Shown here: positions 5,147 through 11,828 of the stretch, piece after piece
Layout: each line of letters begins with the position of its first letter
Position numbering within the stretch: position 1 is the stretch's first letter
Assembly (NCBI GenBank): GCA_044870765.1
Contig: JBIOZG010000033.1
Coordinates: 1-12,491 of the forward strand
DNA: 12,491 bases
Reading direction: 5' to 3'
DNA from: Nitrososphaeraceae archaeon
Lineage (GTDB): Archaea > Thermoproteota > Nitrososphaeria > Nitrososphaerales > Nitrososphaeraceae
Notes under the pieces: model-generated
The model's database searches: none
Told to the model about the DNA's origin: nothing
What the model saw: only the letters and a program-made list of their open reading frames with translations
Made by a program: the position numbers and the translations under genes

Positions 5147-5186
5147 AAGTTAGCACTAGGAGCAAAAGTTAGCATTAGTTTAAATA
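5147..5186 (+). promoter_or_regulatory. TATA box with upstream direct repeats
   Basis: TTTAAATA at 5179-5186, 22 nt before ATG 5209; AAGTTAGCACTAG at 5147-5159 and AAGTTAGCATTAG at 5166-5178. Confidence 0.6.
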
Positions 5187-5208: not shown

Positions 5209-5790
5209 ATGGAACTACAAAAAATTGATAATACACCAAAAATGCTGATAGTATACTGCACACTTGCGGGATTGATATCAGCTCTGATAATTTCGGGACT
5301 GCTAGAAGTCATAGACTTTGCATCGGGTACACCAAGCGGAACTTTTTTTGCCGTAATAGGACTATCACTAGGTTTTAACGATCCCGCCTCAGCTCAATAC
5401 ATTGGATATGGATTACATGTATTAACTGGTACTGTAGCGGGCAACATATTTGGACAAATGGCACTATTCTGGCGAAAACTTATTCCATACAACATGAAGA
5501 GGGGAATATCTTTAGGGTTAATGCTCGGTATATCTTTATGGGCAGTATTGTTCGCTCCGTTAGCAACATTTGGAATTCAACCTAGATTAGATACTTTCAT
5601 GATCACAGAAGCCAATACCTATGCCCACTCCATAGCAAATCACTTTGCAGGATTGTATTATTTCGTGTTGGGAGCATCATTACTATTCCATCTAGTCTAT
5701 GGCGCTGTCTTTGGATTACTGGCGGGAAGAATGACAGGGGTAAAGCTCACAATGCGAAAGCTTATAGACGCCAGAATTAATGGGAATTAA
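5209..5790 (+). CDS. Multi-pass membrane protein with two intramembrane His
   Basis: About 4 hydrophobic helices; GYGLHVLTG and LLFHLVYG motifs. Confidence 0.8.
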   Translation: MELQKIDNTPKMLIVYCTLAGLISALIISGLLEVIDFASGTPSGTFFAVIGLSLGFNDPASAQYIGYGLHVLTGTVAGNIFGQMALFWRKLIPYNMKRGISLGLMLGISLWAVLFAPLATFGIQPRLDTFMITEANTYAHSIANHFAGLYYFVLGASLLFHLVYGAVFGLLAGRMTGVKLTMRKLIDARINGN

Positions 5791-5828
5791 TCAGTTCTCC
5801 CACTTTAAATTGAAATAAGGAGCGCAAA

Positions 5829-7286
5829 ATGACTTCGTTGAAACTGCTAATAAATGAGATGGACTCAAATGCCTTGGGACCGAACAGACTTGATATGGTT
5901 ACTCATAACAGTATCGATACAAACAAGCAAAAGAAAATTAAGATCCTAGTCTCTGGGGCAAGTGGGTTTATTGGTCGCAGACTTGTTAGAAGGTTGCTGA
6001 TCTCACCTACCACAACAAACTGGAGTATAAGATGTATGACAAGAAAAGCACATTCACTTTCAAGCTATTTTCAGAATGACAGAGACAATTTGGAATTTGT
6101 GCAAGCCGATGTTCAAAACTATCCTGAATTAGTAAAGGCATTAACTGGTATTGATATTGCATTTTATCTTATACACTCGATGGAAGGATCATCAAAGGAA
6201 TGGAAAAAATTCGCGGAGCGTGATAGAGTTGCAGCAGAAAATTTTGCTCGAGCAGTGAATGAAGCAGGTGTATCGAGAGTTATTTATCTTGGGGGCTTAA
6301 CGTATGCACCCGAGCAAGAATTATCTAAACATATGCGAAGTAGAACACAAGTAGGTGAAATTCTAAAAAAATCTAACGCTGCGGTTACAATATTTAGAGC
6401 AGCGGTCATTTTGGGACAAGGAGGCGGATCTTTTCAAATGTTACAATACCTTGTAGAAAGGTTACCTTTGATGGTATGTCCAAAATGGGTATTGACCAAA
6501 TGTCAACCCATTGCAGTTGATGATGTAGTAGAATATCTGGTCAGATCTATTGAAATGAATGAAACAAAGTCCAAAACATTTGACATCGGTGGACCGGAGA
6601 TCCTCTCTTACTTGGATATGATGCGACGATATAGTAGTACTCTCAAAAAATCGATTAAAATTTTTATTATTCCATTCTTAACGCCAAGACTTTCTTCTTA
6701 CTGGGTTGATCTCATAACACCGGTGAAAGCATCGCTTGCACGTCCCCTTATCGACAGTCTTAGACATGAAGCAATAGTAAAAGACAATTCTATTGCAGAC
6801 ATCATACCACTTCGTTTAAAGAACTTTGAAAACTCAATTAAAATAGCAAGAAATGAGCAAACTGAAAATGAGAGGGTAATCAAAAAAGAGCGAACATCTT
6901 CATGTTTGAATAAACGAATCTTATTTACCTCTACTATCGCCCTAGCAATTATAGGATTTACGTACTACTTGTTAGATGTCAGAATAGAAATTTTTCAGCC
7001 CATTTGGGTGGTATTGGCAGGCCTTTGGTATTTTGGTATAGCTTTTTCAATATTCTTTATACATAAAGGTGCTAGACTAGGGTCGATAATAGCTGGGATT
7101 CTTGGATGGATTACATTGACATTTTGGCTCCTTGATAATTTCTATCTAATATTTGGGACATCAATTCTTGCATCGCCGCCAGGATATATCATGACAATTC
7201 GAAATTGCATAGGAGCAGCAATAGCGGGTTTGGTTGTTTCCTCATCCCACAATTTGTTTCACAAGATACGAATTCACTGTCTTTAA
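5829..7286 (+). CDS. Atypical SDR / NAD(P)-binding epimerase family protein (YbjT-like) with a C-terminal membrane domain
   Basis: ILVSGASGFIGRRL Rossmann motif, AFYLIHSM, RVIYLGGL, LSKHMRSR, RAAVILGQGGGSF, QPIAVDDV; last ~120 aa hydrophobic; AGGAG at 5818-5822. Confidence 0.88.
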   Translation: MTSLKLLINEMDSNALGPNRLDMVTHNSIDTNKQKKIKILVSGASGFIGRRLVRRLLISPTTTNWSIRCMTRKAHSLSSYFQNDRDNLEFVQADVQNYPELVKALTGIDIAFYLIHSMEGSSKEWKKFAERDRVAAENFARAVNEAGVSRVIYLGGLTYAPEQELSKHMRSRTQVGEILKKSNAAVTIFRAAVILGQGGGSFQMLQYLVERLPLMVCPKWVLTKCQPIAVDDVVEYLVRSIEMNETKSKTFDIGGPEILSYLDMMRRYSSTLKKSIKIFIIPFLTPRLSSYWVDLITPVKASLARPLIDSLRHEAIVKDNSIADIIPLRLKNFENSIKIARNEQTENERVIKKERTSSCLNKRILFTSTIALAIIGFTYYLLDVRIEIFQPIWVVLAGLWYFGIAFSIFFIHKGARLGSIIAGILGWITLTFWLLDNFYLIFGTSILASPPGYIMTIRNCIGAAIAGLVVSSSHNLFHKIRIHCL

Positions 7287-7393
7287 GTCTTGAAAATGTT
7301 TAAACATGGAAAAGTCATTCGCTTACGAACACCACAAATTCACTTAAATCGATTACCTATTGCGTTCTTTGTTAGGGGATCAAGTGTACTAGA

Positions 7394-8296
7394 TTGGTAT
7401 TTATCAGAGATAAAAAAGTAAAAGGACATTCATATGCTTATCTTGTAAGGAACGTATGGGATAGCAAGAATGGAAGGGTAAAACAAGATATTGTTAAATA
7501 TTTGGGTAGATCTTCTAAAGTAGCACTTGAGGATATCCCAAAAGAGTTTCAAAAGGACCCAAACGTAGTTACGTTTATTGCCTGTCATTCTTCGGATGCA
7601 GAAAAAATGGAATTTACCATGAAAGAAAAAATGCTGGAGCTCCTCATAAGAAATGATACCAATTCTCTACTTGATATATTTGAAAGATACTCTCAATTTT
7701 ATGGACTTCTTAAGTTCTACGAAAGATTGCTTGCCCCTGTGATGTACTTGGTGGGAGAGTTGTGGAAGGCGGGTAAACTGGATGTCGCCACTGAACATGT
7801 CTGTAGTAATGCTGCGCATACACTTGTAAAAATAATAAATGAAAGGGGCTCAAGGAATCCTGTAGCGAACAGAAAAGCTCTCAAGATTTTGATATGCACA
7901 CCTGAGGGCGAATATCATAGTTTAGGATGTATGGTAATCGAATCTTTTCTAATAAGCAAAGGACATTCCGTCTCCAACATTGCACCTTCTGTTCCTTCTG
8001 ACGCAATCATAGCTTTTGCAGATAAATTTAATCCTGATTTGATAATGATCTCAATAACTTTAGGCGACAATATTGGTGCCGCAACTAAATTGATAAATAA
8101 AATATTGGAGTCAAGGATAAGTGTTCCTCCTATACTAGTTGGTGGTATTGGAATTGAATCAATAACGATAAAAGGCCAAAACGATAAACTCAAAAAAGTA
8201 AAATTTTTGAAAGGGATAAAGTTAAGCGGTATTCTTCCCAGTATCATAGAAATTACAAAAGGCGGGCAAAAAGTTAGTGAAACAATTAAAAAATGA
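7394..8296 (+). CDS. Cobalamin-binding protein with CarH/LitR-type B12 module and a basic non-MerR N-terminal domain
   Basis: W-x9-EH (WKAGKLDVATEH) in the cap domain, E-x-H-x-x-G (EYHSLG), SITL and ILVGG of the B12 Rossmann fold; TTG start. Confidence 0.88.
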   Translation: MVFIRDKKVKGHSYAYLVRNVWDSKNGRVKQDIVKYLGRSSKVALEDIPKEFQKDPNVVTFIACHSSDAEKMEFTMKEKMLELLIRNDTNSLLDIFERYSQFYGLLKFYERLLAPVMYLVGELWKAGKLDVATEHVCSNAAHTLVKIINERGSRNPVANRKALKILICTPEGEYHSLGCMVIESFLISKGHSVSNIAPSVPSDAIIAFADKFNPDLIMISITLGDNIGAATKLINKILESRISVPPILVGGIGIESITIKGQNDKLKKVKFLKGIKLSGILPSIIEITKGGQKVSETIKK

Positions 8297-8763
8297 TTTT
8301 CACAGGTGCAGATGCTATTTTTAGTGGTCTTGTTTCAGGAATAGTAGCTACAGCGATAATGACAGCGACCGAAATCCAATCATGGAGAAAATGGGGATTG
8401 CTGGGAGTATTTGAATGGCATGAAAATCAAGTACTTTCCACTAGATTTTTTCATATTCCTCGGGAGAAACTTAGTTTCAAATATATTTTCTTTCTGCATT
8501 TCCTAAATGGATCATTGGCAGGTATCGCGTTTCCATTGATACTATCAATTCTTGACGTTTCTATTACATGGGATTATATCCTTGTGCCATCTGTGGCGTA
8601 TGGATTTATGCTTTGGATTGTCACACTTGTACCGATACACAAGCCAATAACGGGATATTCTGTATGGAATCATCAGTTAGGTCATTTACCTTCAATTGCC
8701 AGTCTTTTTGGTCATTTGATATATGGATTAGTATTAGGTATAGTAATAATGCTAATCTACTAA
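8293..8763 (+). CDS. Multi-pass membrane protein with two intramembrane His (resembles 5209..5790)
   Basis: GLVSGIVATAIMT, FFLHFLNG, LFGHLIYG; ATGA overlap with the B12 gene. Confidence 0.8.
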   Translation: MIFTGADAIFSGLVSGIVATAIMTATEIQSWRKWGLLGVFEWHENQVLSTRFFHIPREKLSFKYIFFLHFLNGSLAGIAFPLILSILDVSITWDYILVPSVAYGFMLWIVTLVPIHKPITGYSVWNHQLGHLPSIASLFGHLIYGLVLGIVIMLIY

Positions 8764-8791
8764 CCTCTCAAATGGGTGAAATAATAAAGAT

Positions 8792-9124
8792 ATGAGAATC
8801 TGGGACATTCCTGCAAGGAAATTATGCGCGAAACATCTTCTAGGTGAGCATTGTGAGTTACATGGGCTGTGGAATATTTTGACACAAAATAAATCTGGTT
8901 ATTCCAGACACCCTGAAACCCTAAGATGGAAGGGGAAATTGGCAGCACTATATCTCAGACATGAGGAGCTTGTAGTCGAAATGAAGAAAAGGAATTATCA
9001 ACACAAAAGCGATTTAAATAAGGTATTTGCTACTGGCCGGTCAATTCAGGAAAAGTTTGTAGATTCATATGATGGACAGCTAGAGATACTAAAGGACAAA
9101 GGATGTAAGTGCAAAATTACCTGA
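8792..9124 (+). CDS. Pyrimidine dimer DNA glycosylase / T4 endonuclease V-like protein
   Basis: MRIW...LCAKHLLGEH, GYSRHPETLRW, LYLRHEELVVEMKKRNYQH are characteristic of the Pyr_excise family; GGGTGA SD-like motif at 8774-8779. Confidence 0.82.
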   Translation: MRIWDIPARKLCAKHLLGEHCELHGLWNILTQNKSGYSRHPETLRWKGKLAALYLRHEELVVEMKKRNYQHKSDLNKVFATGRSIQEKFVDSYDGQLEILKDKGCKCKIT

Positions 9125-9165
9125 AGCCAGACAGAATAAAAAGTATCTTCAATAATATACAAGTA

Positions 9166-9234
9166 TGTTACTAATGATGGTAACAATAATTCGGGTTCGG
9201 TGGGATTCGGACAGTGCATGTAGTAGGTTCCTGA
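9166..9234 (+). repeat. Dispersed intergenic repeat copy B
   Basis: TTACTAATGATGGTAACAATAATTCGGGTTCGGTGGGATTCGGACAGTGCATGTA; left part matches copy C, right part matches copy D. Confidence 0.85.
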
Positions 9235-9294
9235 GTCCTTCCATCAATACGATTTATTGCGGTTCCAAATCTGAAATTCATTACTGAATACCTA

Positions 9295-10347
9295 TTAGAG
9301 TTTCTGTGGAGTAGTTAATATTTTTCCGAATAGCTGCGACTCTGACATCTTTATATGACCTTCCACCATGTTGCCAAATGGAAGAATGGTATCGATTACG
9401 GGCTTTATCTTTCCCTTCCTCACCCATCGTATTACTTCTTCTAATCCAGCTTTGGTTCCCTGCGTTGCACCCAATAAATTGATGCCTTTGAAAAACAGAT
9501 ACCTCAGATCAATTGTTGAATCGTATCCAGTAGTAGCGCCCGTTGATACAAGCGTGCCTCCCATCTTCAACAGGCTCAGCTCTTGTGGAAAAGTAGTTTT
9601 GCCAATATGCTCAAAAACAATGTCCACACCTTCTTTGTTAGTTATTTCACGCACTTTCCGGTACCAACCAGATTCACGATGATTTACTACGTAGTCTGCT
9701 CCAAGCTCTAGGCACTTGTTCATTTTGTCTTTATTTCCAGCGGTAGCAATAACAGGACAGTTAAATAAATTGGCAATCTGTATGCCAGCAATTCCCATGC
9801 CACTCCCTCCGCCCATTATTAGGACTGTCTGTCCCGGTCGTATCTTGGCTCTGGTAACAAGCATATGCCATGCAGTCATGCCGACCATCGAAATTGCTGC
9901 TGCGTCATCGAACGATACATTGTCTCGTAGCTTGACTACATTCGCAGCTGGCAATTGAGTATACTGTGCAAAACCCCCCCAGAGTGGCCCTGTCTGGAAA
10001 CCCCAGACTTTCCTACTGGAACAGTCATATTCCCTTCCGGATGTACATTCGTAGCATACCCTGCAAGTCAGGTTTGGATGCACAACCACTCTGTCTCCAA
10101 TCTTAATATTTGCGGATACATTTTCTCCTATTTCCACGACTGTTCCGGCTGCGTCGCTTCCTGATATGTGAGGCATTGGAATTTTGATTGGTTTACCCCA
10201 TATACCCCAGAGGTCATTGTAATTATATGACGCCGCTTCCACTTTAATCAGCACTTCGCTGGATTTTGGCTTTGGCGTATCAATATCCTCAATTTTTACT
10301 ACCTTTCTAGGATCATCATTATGTTCTCTGTACACAGCTGCTTTCAA
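9295..10347 (-). CDS. Medium-chain dehydrogenase/reductase (Zn-binding ADH superfamily)
   Basis: GSDAAGTVVEIG, structural Zn motif CRVCYEC-x7-C, GGGSGMG nucleotide-binding loop; TTG start preceded by GGTGGTGA SD on the minus strand. Confidence 0.92.
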   Translation of the reverse strand: MKAAVYREHNDDPRKVVKIEDIDTPKPKSSEVLIKVEAASYNYNDLWGIWGKPIKIPMPHISGSDAAGTVVEIGENVSANIKIGDRVVVHPNLTCRVCYECTSGREYDCSSRKVWGFQTGPLWGGFAQYTQLPAANVVKLRDNVSFDDAAAISMVGMTAWHMLVTRAKIRPGQTVLIMGGGSGMGIAGIQIANLFNCPVIATAGNKDKMNKCLELGADYVVNHRESGWYRKVREITNKEGVDIVFEHIGKTTFPQELSLLKMGGTLVSTGATTGYDSTIDLRYLFFKGINLLGATQGTKAGLEEVIRWVRKGKIKPVIDTILPFGNMVEGHIKMSESQLFGKILTTPQKL

Positions 10348-10453
10348 GTATGTTCACCACCATCTTTGTCATGGACATCCATTTATTCATAATGGCACAA
10401 ATGTAAAGTATAATACACCAATGACAGGGTAATGGTTTTAGCCTTGCATTTGT

Positions 10454-10496
10454 TTACTAATGTTGGTAACAGTAATTCGGATTCGATGGGAACCAT
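10454..10496 (+). repeat. Dispersed intergenic repeat copy C
   Basis: 10454-10491 matches 9168-9205 at 34/38 nt, then continues ACCAT as in copy A. Confidence 0.85.
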
Positions 10497-10731
10497 ACGG
10501 AATTTCATACTACTTAATTATTACATATCTGATAATGAAAATCTGTAAACCATATCACTAGTGATATTTTTGAAAGATCTTGACTTCTGCGACTTAGAAA
10601 GCCATTTCTATCAATATTGACCCCGTTCATAAAGTCGCAAGAAAATGCAGTGACCAAAATCTGCAGGTTCATTCTGAGCGAATAAAAGTGGAAGAATGCA
10701 CTGGTTACTGGAATGGATTTGCTTCCAATGT

Positions 10732-11514
10732 CTAATTCTTAATACGCTTACGAAAAGGAATATTATCCGGTATAGTTATCACTTTTTCGCCTTTTTCCTC
10801 ATCAGGTATTAGCGCATTATTAATACGCTTACGAAAAGGAATATTATCCGGTATAGTTATCACTTTTTCGCCTTCTTCTTCGTTGGCTTCTAATACATCT
10901 GGTATCAAATAATCTCTATCGTCTTCATACTTTTCACTGAATGACTCGTCTACAGAACTTTCAATTACTTCACCTTTTTCTTTGTCAGGTTTTAGCACCT
11001 TTTTTTGAATCTTGCGGGAGTTCTCTGCTTGCCATTTATCATATTCATCTTGCTTCCTTTTTAGCTCTGAATGGTCTTCAGATACAATTCGCTCGCCTTT
11101 CTTATTATTTAGTATTAAAACATCACCGTACAGTCCGATATGAGGAAATGATGTGGTCTTTATTCCCATGTCTTTTTGTACTGCTTGTATAGCTTTAGCA
11201 TATTTTTCCATCGTTTCAATATTTCGATCATAATCTCTTGCTTTATGATATGCAAACCACATTTTTTTAAGGATGTTAAAACACTGAGAGATTGAATAAC
11301 CAGAGGGACACATTAATTGTTGCTGTTCTTTACGTGAATACAGCTCCAAGAGCCCAAATCTATTTGACAATATTGTCTTCTTCTCTAGGCCTCTTTTTTG
11401 TGGTTTATACGGTTTATTACAATCTATCCATTTTTTGTTCTTTAGTAGATATACGCTAATAGTACCATCTTTCTTTGTATATTTTTGTTTCATTGGGTAA
11501 ATCCTCCACGGCAT
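10732..11514 (-). CDS. Hypothetical protein with a basic N-terminus, acidic C-terminal region and internal repeat
   Basis: 260-aa open frame; no family recognised. Confidence 0.7.
   Translation of the reverse strand: MPWRIYPMKQKYTKKDGTISVYLLKNKKWIDCNKPYKPQKRGLEKKTILSNRFGLLELYSRKEQQQLMCPSGYSISQCFNILKKMWFAYHKARDYDRNIETMEKYAKAIQAVQKDMGIKTTSFPHIGLYGDVLILNNKKGERIVSEDHSELKRKQDEYDKWQAENSRKIQKKVLKPDKEKGEVIESSVDESFSEKYEDDRDYLIPDVLEANEEEGEKVITIPDNIPFRKRINNALIPDEEKGEKVITIPDNIPFRKRIKN
10739..10874. repeat. Intragenic direct repeat, 55 bp identical, 81-nt period
   Basis: 10739-10793 equals 10820-10874; encodes GEKVITIPDNIPFRKRI twice. Confidence 0.95.
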
Positions 11515-11828
11515 TGATTATAATACTAAAGTGTTCTTGCTATCGGATAAATGTTTCGTTACCTTATTGAGTATTCTAGGTTCAATTCGCATGAGACCAC
11601 TTCAAGTTTGAATATCATGCTTTCATTTGGATGCGTTTTTGAGATCTATTTTATGTAATACCGTGCCTTTTGAAATTAAACGCATAGAGCTTGTACTCGT
11701 TTCTTCTTTTTGAGTATGAGTTTCAAAGTGCAGTTAAAAGCCCAAGGGTCTTGTCAATCTTTTATTTTCACTAGGGATAAATAAAGTTGTAAGTGAGTAT
11801 ATTAAAAAGAACTTGTACATTGTAGACG

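Follow-up and report, generated by a model that had tools for sequence, protein, structure and literature searches.

How might an ammonia-oxidising archaeon sense light, and would such a sense be tied to the repair of ultraviolet (UV) damage? Ammonia-oxidising archaea (AOA), which drive nitrification in both soil and ocean, have been reported as sensitive to light. The question is raised by a stretch of 12,491 nucleotides (nt) from a Nitrososphaeraceae archaeon (contig JBIOZG010000033.1 of assembly GCA_044870765.1; the whole stretch is called the window below), which has a G+C content of 36%, and whose proteins find all their close relatives in Nitrososphaeraceae, the soil AOA. At 7394..8296 on its + strand lies a gene with a TTG start for a 300-residue protein with the Pfam domains B12-binding_2 and B12-binding, a candidate B12-binding regulator. 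In our reading, to which we assign a probability of roughly 0.6, this protein is a light-responsive transcription regulator of AOA based on adenosylcobalamin (AdoCbl), in which a CarH-like module is joined to an unclassified beta N-terminal domain replacing MerR, and which acts on direct repeats of TTAGCACTA. The wider claim, that it is the first archaeal B12 photoreceptor transcription factor, with an AdoCbl switch, an undescribed beta-sheet DNA-binding domain reading the TTAGCACTA repeats and a light/UV regulon across AOA, is in our judgement an even bet.

The B12 module

On the 300-residue protein, Pfam places B12-binding_2 at residues 78-148 (E 1.3e-11) and B12-binding at residues 164-253 (E 3.7e-13). 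The initial annotation had noted the two motifs W-x9-EH and E-x-H-x-x-G, and regular expressions do find both of them. The former is W124-KAGKLDVAT-E134-H135 in the four-helix bundle (7763..7798, + strand), while the latter turns out to belong to a complete classic B12 motif, E173-Y-H175-S-L-G178-x41-S220-I-T222-x27-G250-G251, in the Rossmann module (7910..8146, + strand), where His175 is the predicted lower axial ligand. Across the 48 aligned family members, E173 and H175 do not vary, and conservation at W124, E134 and H135 is at least 90%. According to PMC9304148, the full classic motif reads D/ExHx2G/P-x41-SxT/V-x22-27-GG, and the Wx9EH region of CarH is the pocket of the upper adenosyl ligand; an intact Wx9EH contacts the adenosyl group and tells the AdoCbl-dependent CarH from the B12-independent CarA (PMC9304148).

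Sequence and structure searches were then compared with the solved B12 proteins. Searched as a single sequence, the protein has Thermus CarH as the top match among PDB sequences (E 6.1e-13), and HMMER aligns both motifs residue for residue. With a profile of the 48 members, the PDB is ranked in the order of photocobilin (4.8e-30), a MerR-family B12 protein of Chloracidobacterium (9.1e-28) and CarH (1.1e-25), with methionine synthase (5.2e-21), a trimethylamine corrinoid protein (8.6e-18) and AerR (7te2, 1.4e-17) below them. The AlphaFold2 model of the protein has a predicted local distance difference test score (pLDDT) of 93.5 and a predicted template-modelling score (pTM) of 0.87, and all 23 of the Foldseek matches listed against the PDB are photocobilin, TtCarH or the Chloracidobacterium B12 domain. 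The solved B12 photoreceptors are the nearest relatives by sequence as well as by predicted fold, and the photoreceptor-like character proposed for the module is borne out. The best NCBIfam model is also CarH, matching residues 75-254 only, with 54.6 bits against a cut-off of 400. The source annotations of the relatives conflict with one another, as they include 'methanogenic corrinoid protein MtbC1', 'MerR family ... light-induced transcriptional regulator' and 'cobalamin B12-binding domain-containing protein'.

The N-terminal domain and the identity of the family

CarH and LitR are AdoCbl-dependent photoreceptor repressors of the MerR family, known from Thermus thermophilus, Myxococcus xanthus and Bacillus megaterium. 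The initial annotation had named them as the photoreceptors that the protein's motifs characterise. The protein does have the Wx9EH and classic B12 motifs; the MerR winged-helix domain, with its RxWERRY recognition helix, is missing, for neither Pfam nor NCBIfam matches a MerR domain anywhere in the protein, and residues 1-79 have no Pfam match at E up to 10. Since it lacks a MerR domain and has an all-beta sheet with one helix instead, we do not count the protein as a member of CarH/LitR.

The N-terminal domain covers residues 1-66 (7394..7591, + strand). It is modelled by AlphaFold2 as three long antiparallel beta strands (residues 2-9, 12-23 and 28-39) and a helix (56-65), with a pLDDT of 89.7 when taken alone and above 90 in the full-length model. 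The domain is basic (13 K/R against 7 D/E), and M1, R5, K7, K10, Y14, Y16, V18, W22, Q31, Y36, L37 and G38 are invariant in 44 sequences. Foldseek finds no known fold for it in the PDB (0 matches at E ≤0.001, the best E being 0.2), a probability of 0.8 for PC4 being a lead only. The look-alikes of residues 1-66 in the ESM Atlas score at best 0.77, which is in the chance range, while a word-index search with the same residues returns the same B12 family in all 120 matches listed. We propose, as a guess, that these residues bind DNA.

An exhaustive representative search gives 6068 proteins at E ≤0.001, only 44 of which reach E ≤1e-30. From the 150 matches listed, the alignment takes 47 full-length sequences covering the query from residues 1-3, fragments and proteins with the B12 module only having been dropped. 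As the strong matches are few and the full-length set shares both parts, we regard the two-part architecture as a distinct family. A group of G+C-rich and Arg-rich relatives (P0283-P0321) has the same N-terminal domain and B12 module, and may come from lineages outside AOA. In the literature surveyed we found no report linking a CarH-like or other B12 photoreceptor to AOA or describing this architecture; subscription reviews lay mostly outside this survey, and an earlier mention of archaeal homologues is possible.

A candidate operator

We then turn to the DNA that such a regulator would read. A contig scan gave 160 confirmed relatives, and the best 80 loci (numbered L) were used for neighbour analysis, making 81 sequences with the window included. 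All the 80 loci come from AOA (Nitrososphaeria), under the names Nitrososphaeraceae, Nitrososphaerales, Nitrosocosmicus, Nitrosotenuis, Nitrosopolaris, Nitrosopumilus, marine group I and unspecified Thermoproteota/Thaumarchaeota, and several genomes have two paralogues (for example L021 with L027, and L057 with L070).

In the window, the candidate operator lies at 5150..5177 on the + strand (repeat family D15), and consists of the direct repeats TTAGCACTA (5150-5158) and TTAGCATTA (5169-5177), 19 nt from start to start; the repeat search reports them as AAGTTAGCACTAG and AAGTTAGCATTAG, 19 nt apart, at 5147-5178. Directly 3' of the second repeat comes a TATA-like box, TTTAAATA (5179..5186, + strand), which is 22 nt 5' of the ATG of the membrane-protein gene memA, so the transcript of this first gene would be leaderless or nearly so. 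Of the 13 sequences that make up the window's clade, 11 have the same dyad 5' of memA, while L004 and L008 stop short of this region. Variants of the repeat (TTAGGCAC, TTGGCAC and TTACCAC) stand before memA and the neighbour family f3, and in loci beyond the window's clade also before the B12 gene.

On the whole, the dyads are far more frequent in the 81 sequences than in the randomised controls. The first scan gives 120 pair hits (some double-counted), 118 of them intergenic, against 0-7 in 20 shuffles, and a stricter 9-mer count gives 81 dyads in 59 of the 81 sequences, against 0-8 for 30 scrambled motifs. A census by regular expression lists 90 distinct dyads, 52 of them spaced by 19 nt and 81 by 18-20 nt. 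Of the 90, 68 have a TATA-like box no more than 14 nt away, and 74 are placed within 120 nt 5' of the start of an open reading frame (ORF), at a median of 31 nt. The ORF after the dyad is the B12 gene in 30 cases, memA in 15, f3 in 12, f9 in 7, f39 in 3, a Pyr_redox_2 gene in 2 and another gene in 5. Such a placement in front of the regulator's own gene is what an autoregulated factor would show. In addition, perfect dyads with a TATA box but without an ORF of at least 60 residues within 120 nt are seen in L017 (2986-3013), L035 (1289-1316), L045 (3024-3051) and others; such orphan dyads may precede small unannotated genes or non-coding RNAs.

Organization of the gene row

The dyad of the window stands at the head of five consecutive + strand genes at 5209-9124. 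The initial annotation had described an operon of the B12 gene, a membrane-protein gene and a gene for a glycosylase-like protein, beginning at 7394. The gene order is as described, including the ATGA overlap of 4 nt, in which the TGA stop of the B12 gene (8294-8296) runs over the ATG of the next gene (8293-8295), and the spacer of exactly 28 nt that follows it, with its Shine-Dalgarno-like motif; the start at 7394 is not upheld, the unit most likely beginning about 2.2 kb upstream with memA at 5209. The first gene, memA (5209..5790, + strand, by ORF call), is the probable first gene of the operon and encodes a multi-pass membrane protein of 193 residues, with a weak match to Pfam DUF6789 that is under the cut-off (E 0.19, 12.3 bits). 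The second, SDRm (5829..7286, + strand; Pfam NAD_binding_10, NmrA and Epimerase), encodes an NAD(P)-binding atypical short-chain dehydrogenase/reductase (SDR) with a C-terminal hydrophobic region that is probably membrane-spanning. Its NmrA/NDUFA9-like part takes up about residues 36-300, and its nearest solved relatives are the 39-kDa/NDUFA9-type subunits of complex I. The motif AGGAG stands 8 nt 5' of its ATG, and GGGGA stands 14 nt 5' of the start of the B12 gene, whose TTG is backed by the relatives, since 44 of 44 aligned start at the same MV[FY]IR. The fourth gene (8293..8763, + strand) encodes a DUF6789 membrane protein of 156 residues (30.9 bits against a Pfam gathering cut-off of 27.1). 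The fifth (8792..9124, + strand) encodes a protein of 110 residues of the Pyr_excise family (PF03013, E 3.3e-25); the Shine-Dalgarno-like GGGTGA at 8774..8779 on the + strand is 12 nt 5' of its ATG, and the GGTGA core is kept in the three close relatives shown (L001, L005 and L007).

Because the sole dyad of the window precedes memA, and the later genes have Shine-Dalgarno-like motifs or overlap, we propose one operon at 5209-9124; the layout suggests co-transcription of memA, SDRm, the B12 gene, the DUF6789 gene and Pyr_excise. A scan for sigma-70 promoters and intrinsic terminators, which is ill-suited to archaea, gives 9 sites against 9.0 expected, that is, the level of chance, and a tRNA search of the window finds none.

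Conserved neighbours and UV-repair genes

Below we report the neighbourhoods of the family, with flanks of about 6 kb. In the 81 sequences 899 ORFs were called and clustered and gene maps were drawn; Pfam was run on one representative for each of 70 neighbour families and on 21 further neighbours, and tblastn was used for their spread. Overall, the results show a recurrent cassette in the order [f3]-SDRm-memA-B12, which in the window's clade is memA-SDRm-B12-DUF6789. Homologues are counted by tblastn in the 80 loci as 49 for SDRm, 46 for memA, 19 for DUF6789 and 10 for Pyr_excise. The conserved partners lie upstream and are the SDR-membrane fusion and memA, and not the glycosylase. None of memA, f3, f9, f39 and the C-terminal membrane part of SDRm has a significant Pfam match.

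As for UV repair, the initial annotation had suggested looking for an enrichment of such genes around the homologues, and this comparison is positive: 22 of the 81 sequences, from several clades and without overlap, have Pyr_excise (11, including the window), UvdE (8) or DNA photolyase (3) in the 742 kb scanned. The figure may be set beside a chance expectation of about one UV gene per 742 kb, which is an estimate rather than a measured control, for we assume about one copy of each family per AOA genome of about 1.8-3 Mb, and only the record size of L033 (1.77 Mb) is taken from data. Within the 13-member clade of the window, 8 sequences (the window itself, L001 and L003-L008) have Pyr_excise 3' of the cassette on the same strand, and the gene also occurs in three Nitrosotenuis-type loci; the contig of L002 ends before the position. 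UvdE is found in L013-L016, immediately downstream and convergent, and in L031, L035, L060 and L064, and photolyase in L070, L072 and L074. When labelled rows are counted on a maximum-likelihood tree built from the 81 proteins, Pyr_excise and photolyase each need a minimum of 2 changes and UvdE a minimum of 3; over all rows, the label 'any UV gene' needs 12. Since the tree needs multiple changes, the UV link arose or was kept in several separate clades and not once.

Some of these genes have operator-like sites of their own. A full dyad is upstream of UvdE in L064, where the stretch separating UvdE from a flavin amine-oxidase-like gene has dyads in either orientation, and photolyase has a strong first repeat upstream and a degenerate second one in L072 and L074; nothing operator-like is upstream of the photolyase of L070.

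The fifth gene of the window deserves a closer look. Its product matches PF03013 with 88.7 bits against a gathering score of 23, over profile positions 1-79 of 81, and has 4129 relatives; it is a putative pyrimidine-dimer DNA glycosylase. A search of PDB sequences with it gives no match. The match to PF03013 and an invariant Glu in the N-terminal region (E22) liken it to T4 endonuclease V and cv-PDG, and E22 may be the counterpart of the catalytic Glu23 of T4. It differs from these enzymes in its length of 110 residues, its 'MRIWD' start, with Met-Arg and not Met-Thr at the N-terminus, and its invariant Cys and His. In 17 aligned members of this short 'MRIWD' subfamily, E22, C12, H15, H20, H24, C105 and C107 are all invariant, and the Cys/His set, with a C-x-C at the C-terminus, suggests a metal site; we know of none in T4 endonuclease V.

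It may be asked whether this gene belongs to the regulon at all. The regulator could be real while the Pyr_excise gene of the window is a passenger outside light control, the UV link being a by-product of genomic islands. L009-L012 are without Pyr_excise and have other genes after DUF6789, and in L009 and L010, whose contigs are long enough, a homologue of the window's metallophosphoesterase follows soon after; the 28-nt spacer holds no operator; and the gene has a dehydrogenase gene of the medium-chain dehydrogenase/reductase (MDR) type nearby in Nitrosotenuis as it does in the window, a pairing that hints at a unit which is mobile or has a linkage of its own. Against these points, the gene shares the strand of the preceding gene, follows it after 28 nt and has a Shine-Dalgarno motif, and no terminator-like site is predicted on the + strand at 7000-9500. 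Furthermore, Pyr_excise of the Nitrosotenuis-type loci (L048, L055 and L059) has its own promoter, with a TATA box, a perfect first repeat (TTAGCACTA/TTGGCACTA) and, 20 nt further, a second repeat that is degenerate, and three different UV-repair families recur near family members. We consider the passenger explanation unlikely, and keep Pyr_excise as a candidate member of the light-regulated unit.

The initial annotation had also set its regulator apart from carotenogenesis. This stands insofar as no phytoene synthase or lycopene cyclase is found among the 70 families and 21 further neighbours; it is less clear-cut insofar as a gene of the Amino_oxidase type (f63) adjoins the B12 gene in three loci, and a desaturase role for this flavoprotein is possible, because phytoene desaturases share that Pfam family. 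The three genes, directly beside the B12 gene, are at L064:4616-5948, L074:4271-5614 and L077:6855-8192, and operator-like repeats are upstream in two of them (L064 and L074).

Other explanations of the B12 protein

Granted that a regulatory system exists, the B12 protein need not be the factor that binds the repeats. It could be a light- or B12-dependent partner of the antirepressor type, as AerR is for CrtJ/PpsR, with the N-terminal domain serving protein contacts, while another archaeal factor binds the TTAGCACTA repeats and also controls the B12 gene. That the N-terminal domain is unlike any DNA-binding family or fold would fit such a role, as would the presence of AerR among the solved relatives and of small winged-helix (HTH_45) and TFB genes in some neighbourhoods. 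However, no second regulator gene is conserved in the neighbourhoods, where the partners are membrane proteins and the SDR; the excess of basic residues in the N-terminal domain, with R5, K7 and K10 invariant, argues for the protein itself as the binder, and so do the dyads preceding the B12 genes in 30 of the 81 sequences. CarH and photocobilin also score well over AerR with the profile. AerR has the same architecture of B12-binding_2 and B12-binding and a light-related regulatory role; yet it is without a DNA-binding part and acts via a partner, whereas the AOA protein adds a conserved basic N-terminal domain. We judge an antirepressor role to be rather unlikely, and return to a regulator that contacts its repeats directly.

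A further possibility is that the protein works in the dark, as a cobalamin sensor that reports the B12 supply and steers B12 and cobalt physiology, a protein stand-in for the B12 riboswitch with no role in light. Rfam finds no family in the window, the cobalamin riboswitch included, and AOA do synthesise cobalamin, as stated in PMC6908642. Moreover, the cobalt-transporter genes CbtB and CbtA are directly upstream of the cassette, before memA, in L009 (2510-3521), L010 (2663-3678), L011 and L012, and near it in L053 (14-880, both genes) and L071 (949-1161, CbtB). These genes, however, have no dyad in front, and the genes that are dyad-preceded or recurrent are those of membrane proteins, SDR, Pyr_excise, photolyase, UvdE and the flavin oxidase, and not those of B12 synthesis or B12-dependent enzymes; an intact Wx9EH is tied to AdoCbl, the photolabile form (PMC9304148). 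A purely dark sensor seems rather improbable to us. Finally, a corrinoid methyl-carrier of the MtbC/MtaC type in a coincidental neighbourhood, as the name 'methanogenic corrinoid protein MtbC1' and weak matches to NCBIfam corrinoid-carrier models might suggest, is hardly credible, as these matches reach 24-40 bits against cut-offs of 215-450, no methyltransferase is among the 70 annotated neighbour families, the conserved N-terminal domain and Wx9EH are foreign to such carriers, and photoreceptors rank above corrinoid proteins in both sequence and fold searches.

Proposed mechanism and its relation to known systems

The light-regulator reading may be put as follows. In the dark, the AdoCbl-loaded protein would oligomerise, by analogy with CarH, and its N-terminal domains would sit on the two TTAGCACTA direct repeats, 19 bp apart, which abut the TATA box and TFB-recognition element (TATA/BRE). 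The occupied repeats would block the TATA-binding protein (TBP) and transcription factor B (TFB). Light would cut the Co-C bond, the oligomer would dissociate and transcription would begin. Repression is preferred to activation because the second repeat abuts the TATA/BRE region, and archaeal regulators that overlap BRE/TATA generally block TBP/TFB. The B12 protein would be autoregulated, and membrane proteins, the membrane SDR and the UV-repair genes Pyr_excise, photolyase and UvdE would make up its regulon. For the window, this means that the one operator, at 5150-5177, would govern 5209-9124, joining membrane or redox protection to the repair of UV lesions. In this scheme B12 binding, light response, oligomerisation, DNA binding, repeat binding, repression and co-transcription are all inferred.

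Several points weigh against this reading. The whole case for a light regulator rests on sequence comparison and predicted structure. With no match of the N-terminal domain to a known DNA-binding family or fold, its DNA binding is guessed from charge, conservation and position, and the repeats could have another factor as their binder. Trp124 is followed by Lys and not by His, the residue which at that position forms the bis-His adduct of the light state in Thermus CarH, according to PMC9304148. In the window's clade there is no operator directly 5' of the B12 gene or of Pyr_excise, so the control of both rests on an assumed read-through from 5209, and the 107-nt spacer between SDRm and the B12 gene (7287-7393) holds a TATA-like TTTAAAC. 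Pyr_excise is absent from 4 of the 13 members of that clade (L009-L012), and no recognisable dyad is upstream of UvdE in L013-L016, L031 and L060. The scan patterns were drawn from the same family, which biases the sample to close kin, the best 80 of 160, and the baseline for the UV-repair genes is the estimate given above.

Compared with CarH/LitR, the AOA protein has the same four-helix bundle with Wx9EH and the same Rossmann module with ExHx2G-x41-SxT-x27-GG. Its candidate tandem direct-repeat operator at a promoter is a further likeness, Thermus CarH using direct repeats, as are the adjacent light-protection genes, with photolyase in some loci. It differs in the unclassified three-stranded beta domain in place of the MerR winged helix, in the Lys in place of His after Trp, and in its archaeal host with a promoter of the archaeal TATA/BRE type. 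While CarH in bacteria controls genes of carotenoid synthesis, the partners in AOA are membrane proteins, SDR and UV-repair genes. The photocobilins and CarH-like B12 domains (8j2w/8j2x; Chloracidobacterium 8jbs) are the top matches in profile and fold over the whole B12 module; they carry a bilin-binding or MerR part, whereas the AOA protein has neither, and Pfam detects no second chromophore domain in it. With the bacterial light-induced photolyase regulons of the LitR/PhrR type, the AOA loci presumably share a B12-type regulator beside photolyase, flavin amine-oxidase-like and SDR genes, but differ in the DNA-binding part of the regulator, the operator and the archaeal host. The light-switch module is known; what would be new are the output domain, the operator, the host domain of life and the UV-repair/membrane regulon.

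If the reading is true, it would give a genetic handle on light perception and survival in globally important nitrifiers, and, with the operator of a light-switch regulator defined, the light response of AOA could be tested directly. It would also bring the B12 photoreceptor family an archaeal branch and an output domain that binds DNA in a new way, mark memA, DUF6789 and the SDR-membrane fusion as candidates for photoprotection, and offer a possible optogenetic module for archaeal and eukaryote-like TATA promoters.

Other features of the loci

Besides the genes discussed above, the recurring neighbours of the family include HSP20 with CDC48, TFB with malic enzyme, and HerA/Rad50-like genes. 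In one paralogous clade (L053, L065, L071 and L073), HSP20 and then CDC48-type AAA ATPase genes lie 3' of the B12 gene, and the small divergent gene f39 of this clade has its own dyad. In Nitrosocosmicus-type loci (L050-L052, L056, L058, L063, L068 and L078), TFB (TFIIB) and malic-enzyme genes are upstream of the B12 gene, and HerA and Rad50/SMC-like repair genes are downstream. CbtA has a weak match to DUF6789 (E 7e-4), on account of which CbtA, DUF6789 and memA may share a membrane fold.

Pyr_excise is close to a convergent gene for an MDR/zinc dehydrogenase, like crotonyl- and acryloyl-CoA reductases, both in the window (8792-10347) and in L048, L055 and L059 (at 9382-11659); in these three Nitrosotenuis-type loci an HpcH-aldolase gene lies between the two. 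Within the spacer 7287-7393, a block is kept through L001-L012 (AAAATGTTTAAACATGG, with the palindrome TGTTTAAACA), and this conserved TTTAAAC block may be an internal promoter or a 3' element. In addition, the window has at 10732-11514 on the - strand an ORF of 260 residues without a family match, which ends in a C-terminal tandem duplication of about 25 residues, with GEKVITIPDNIPFRKRI occurring twice.

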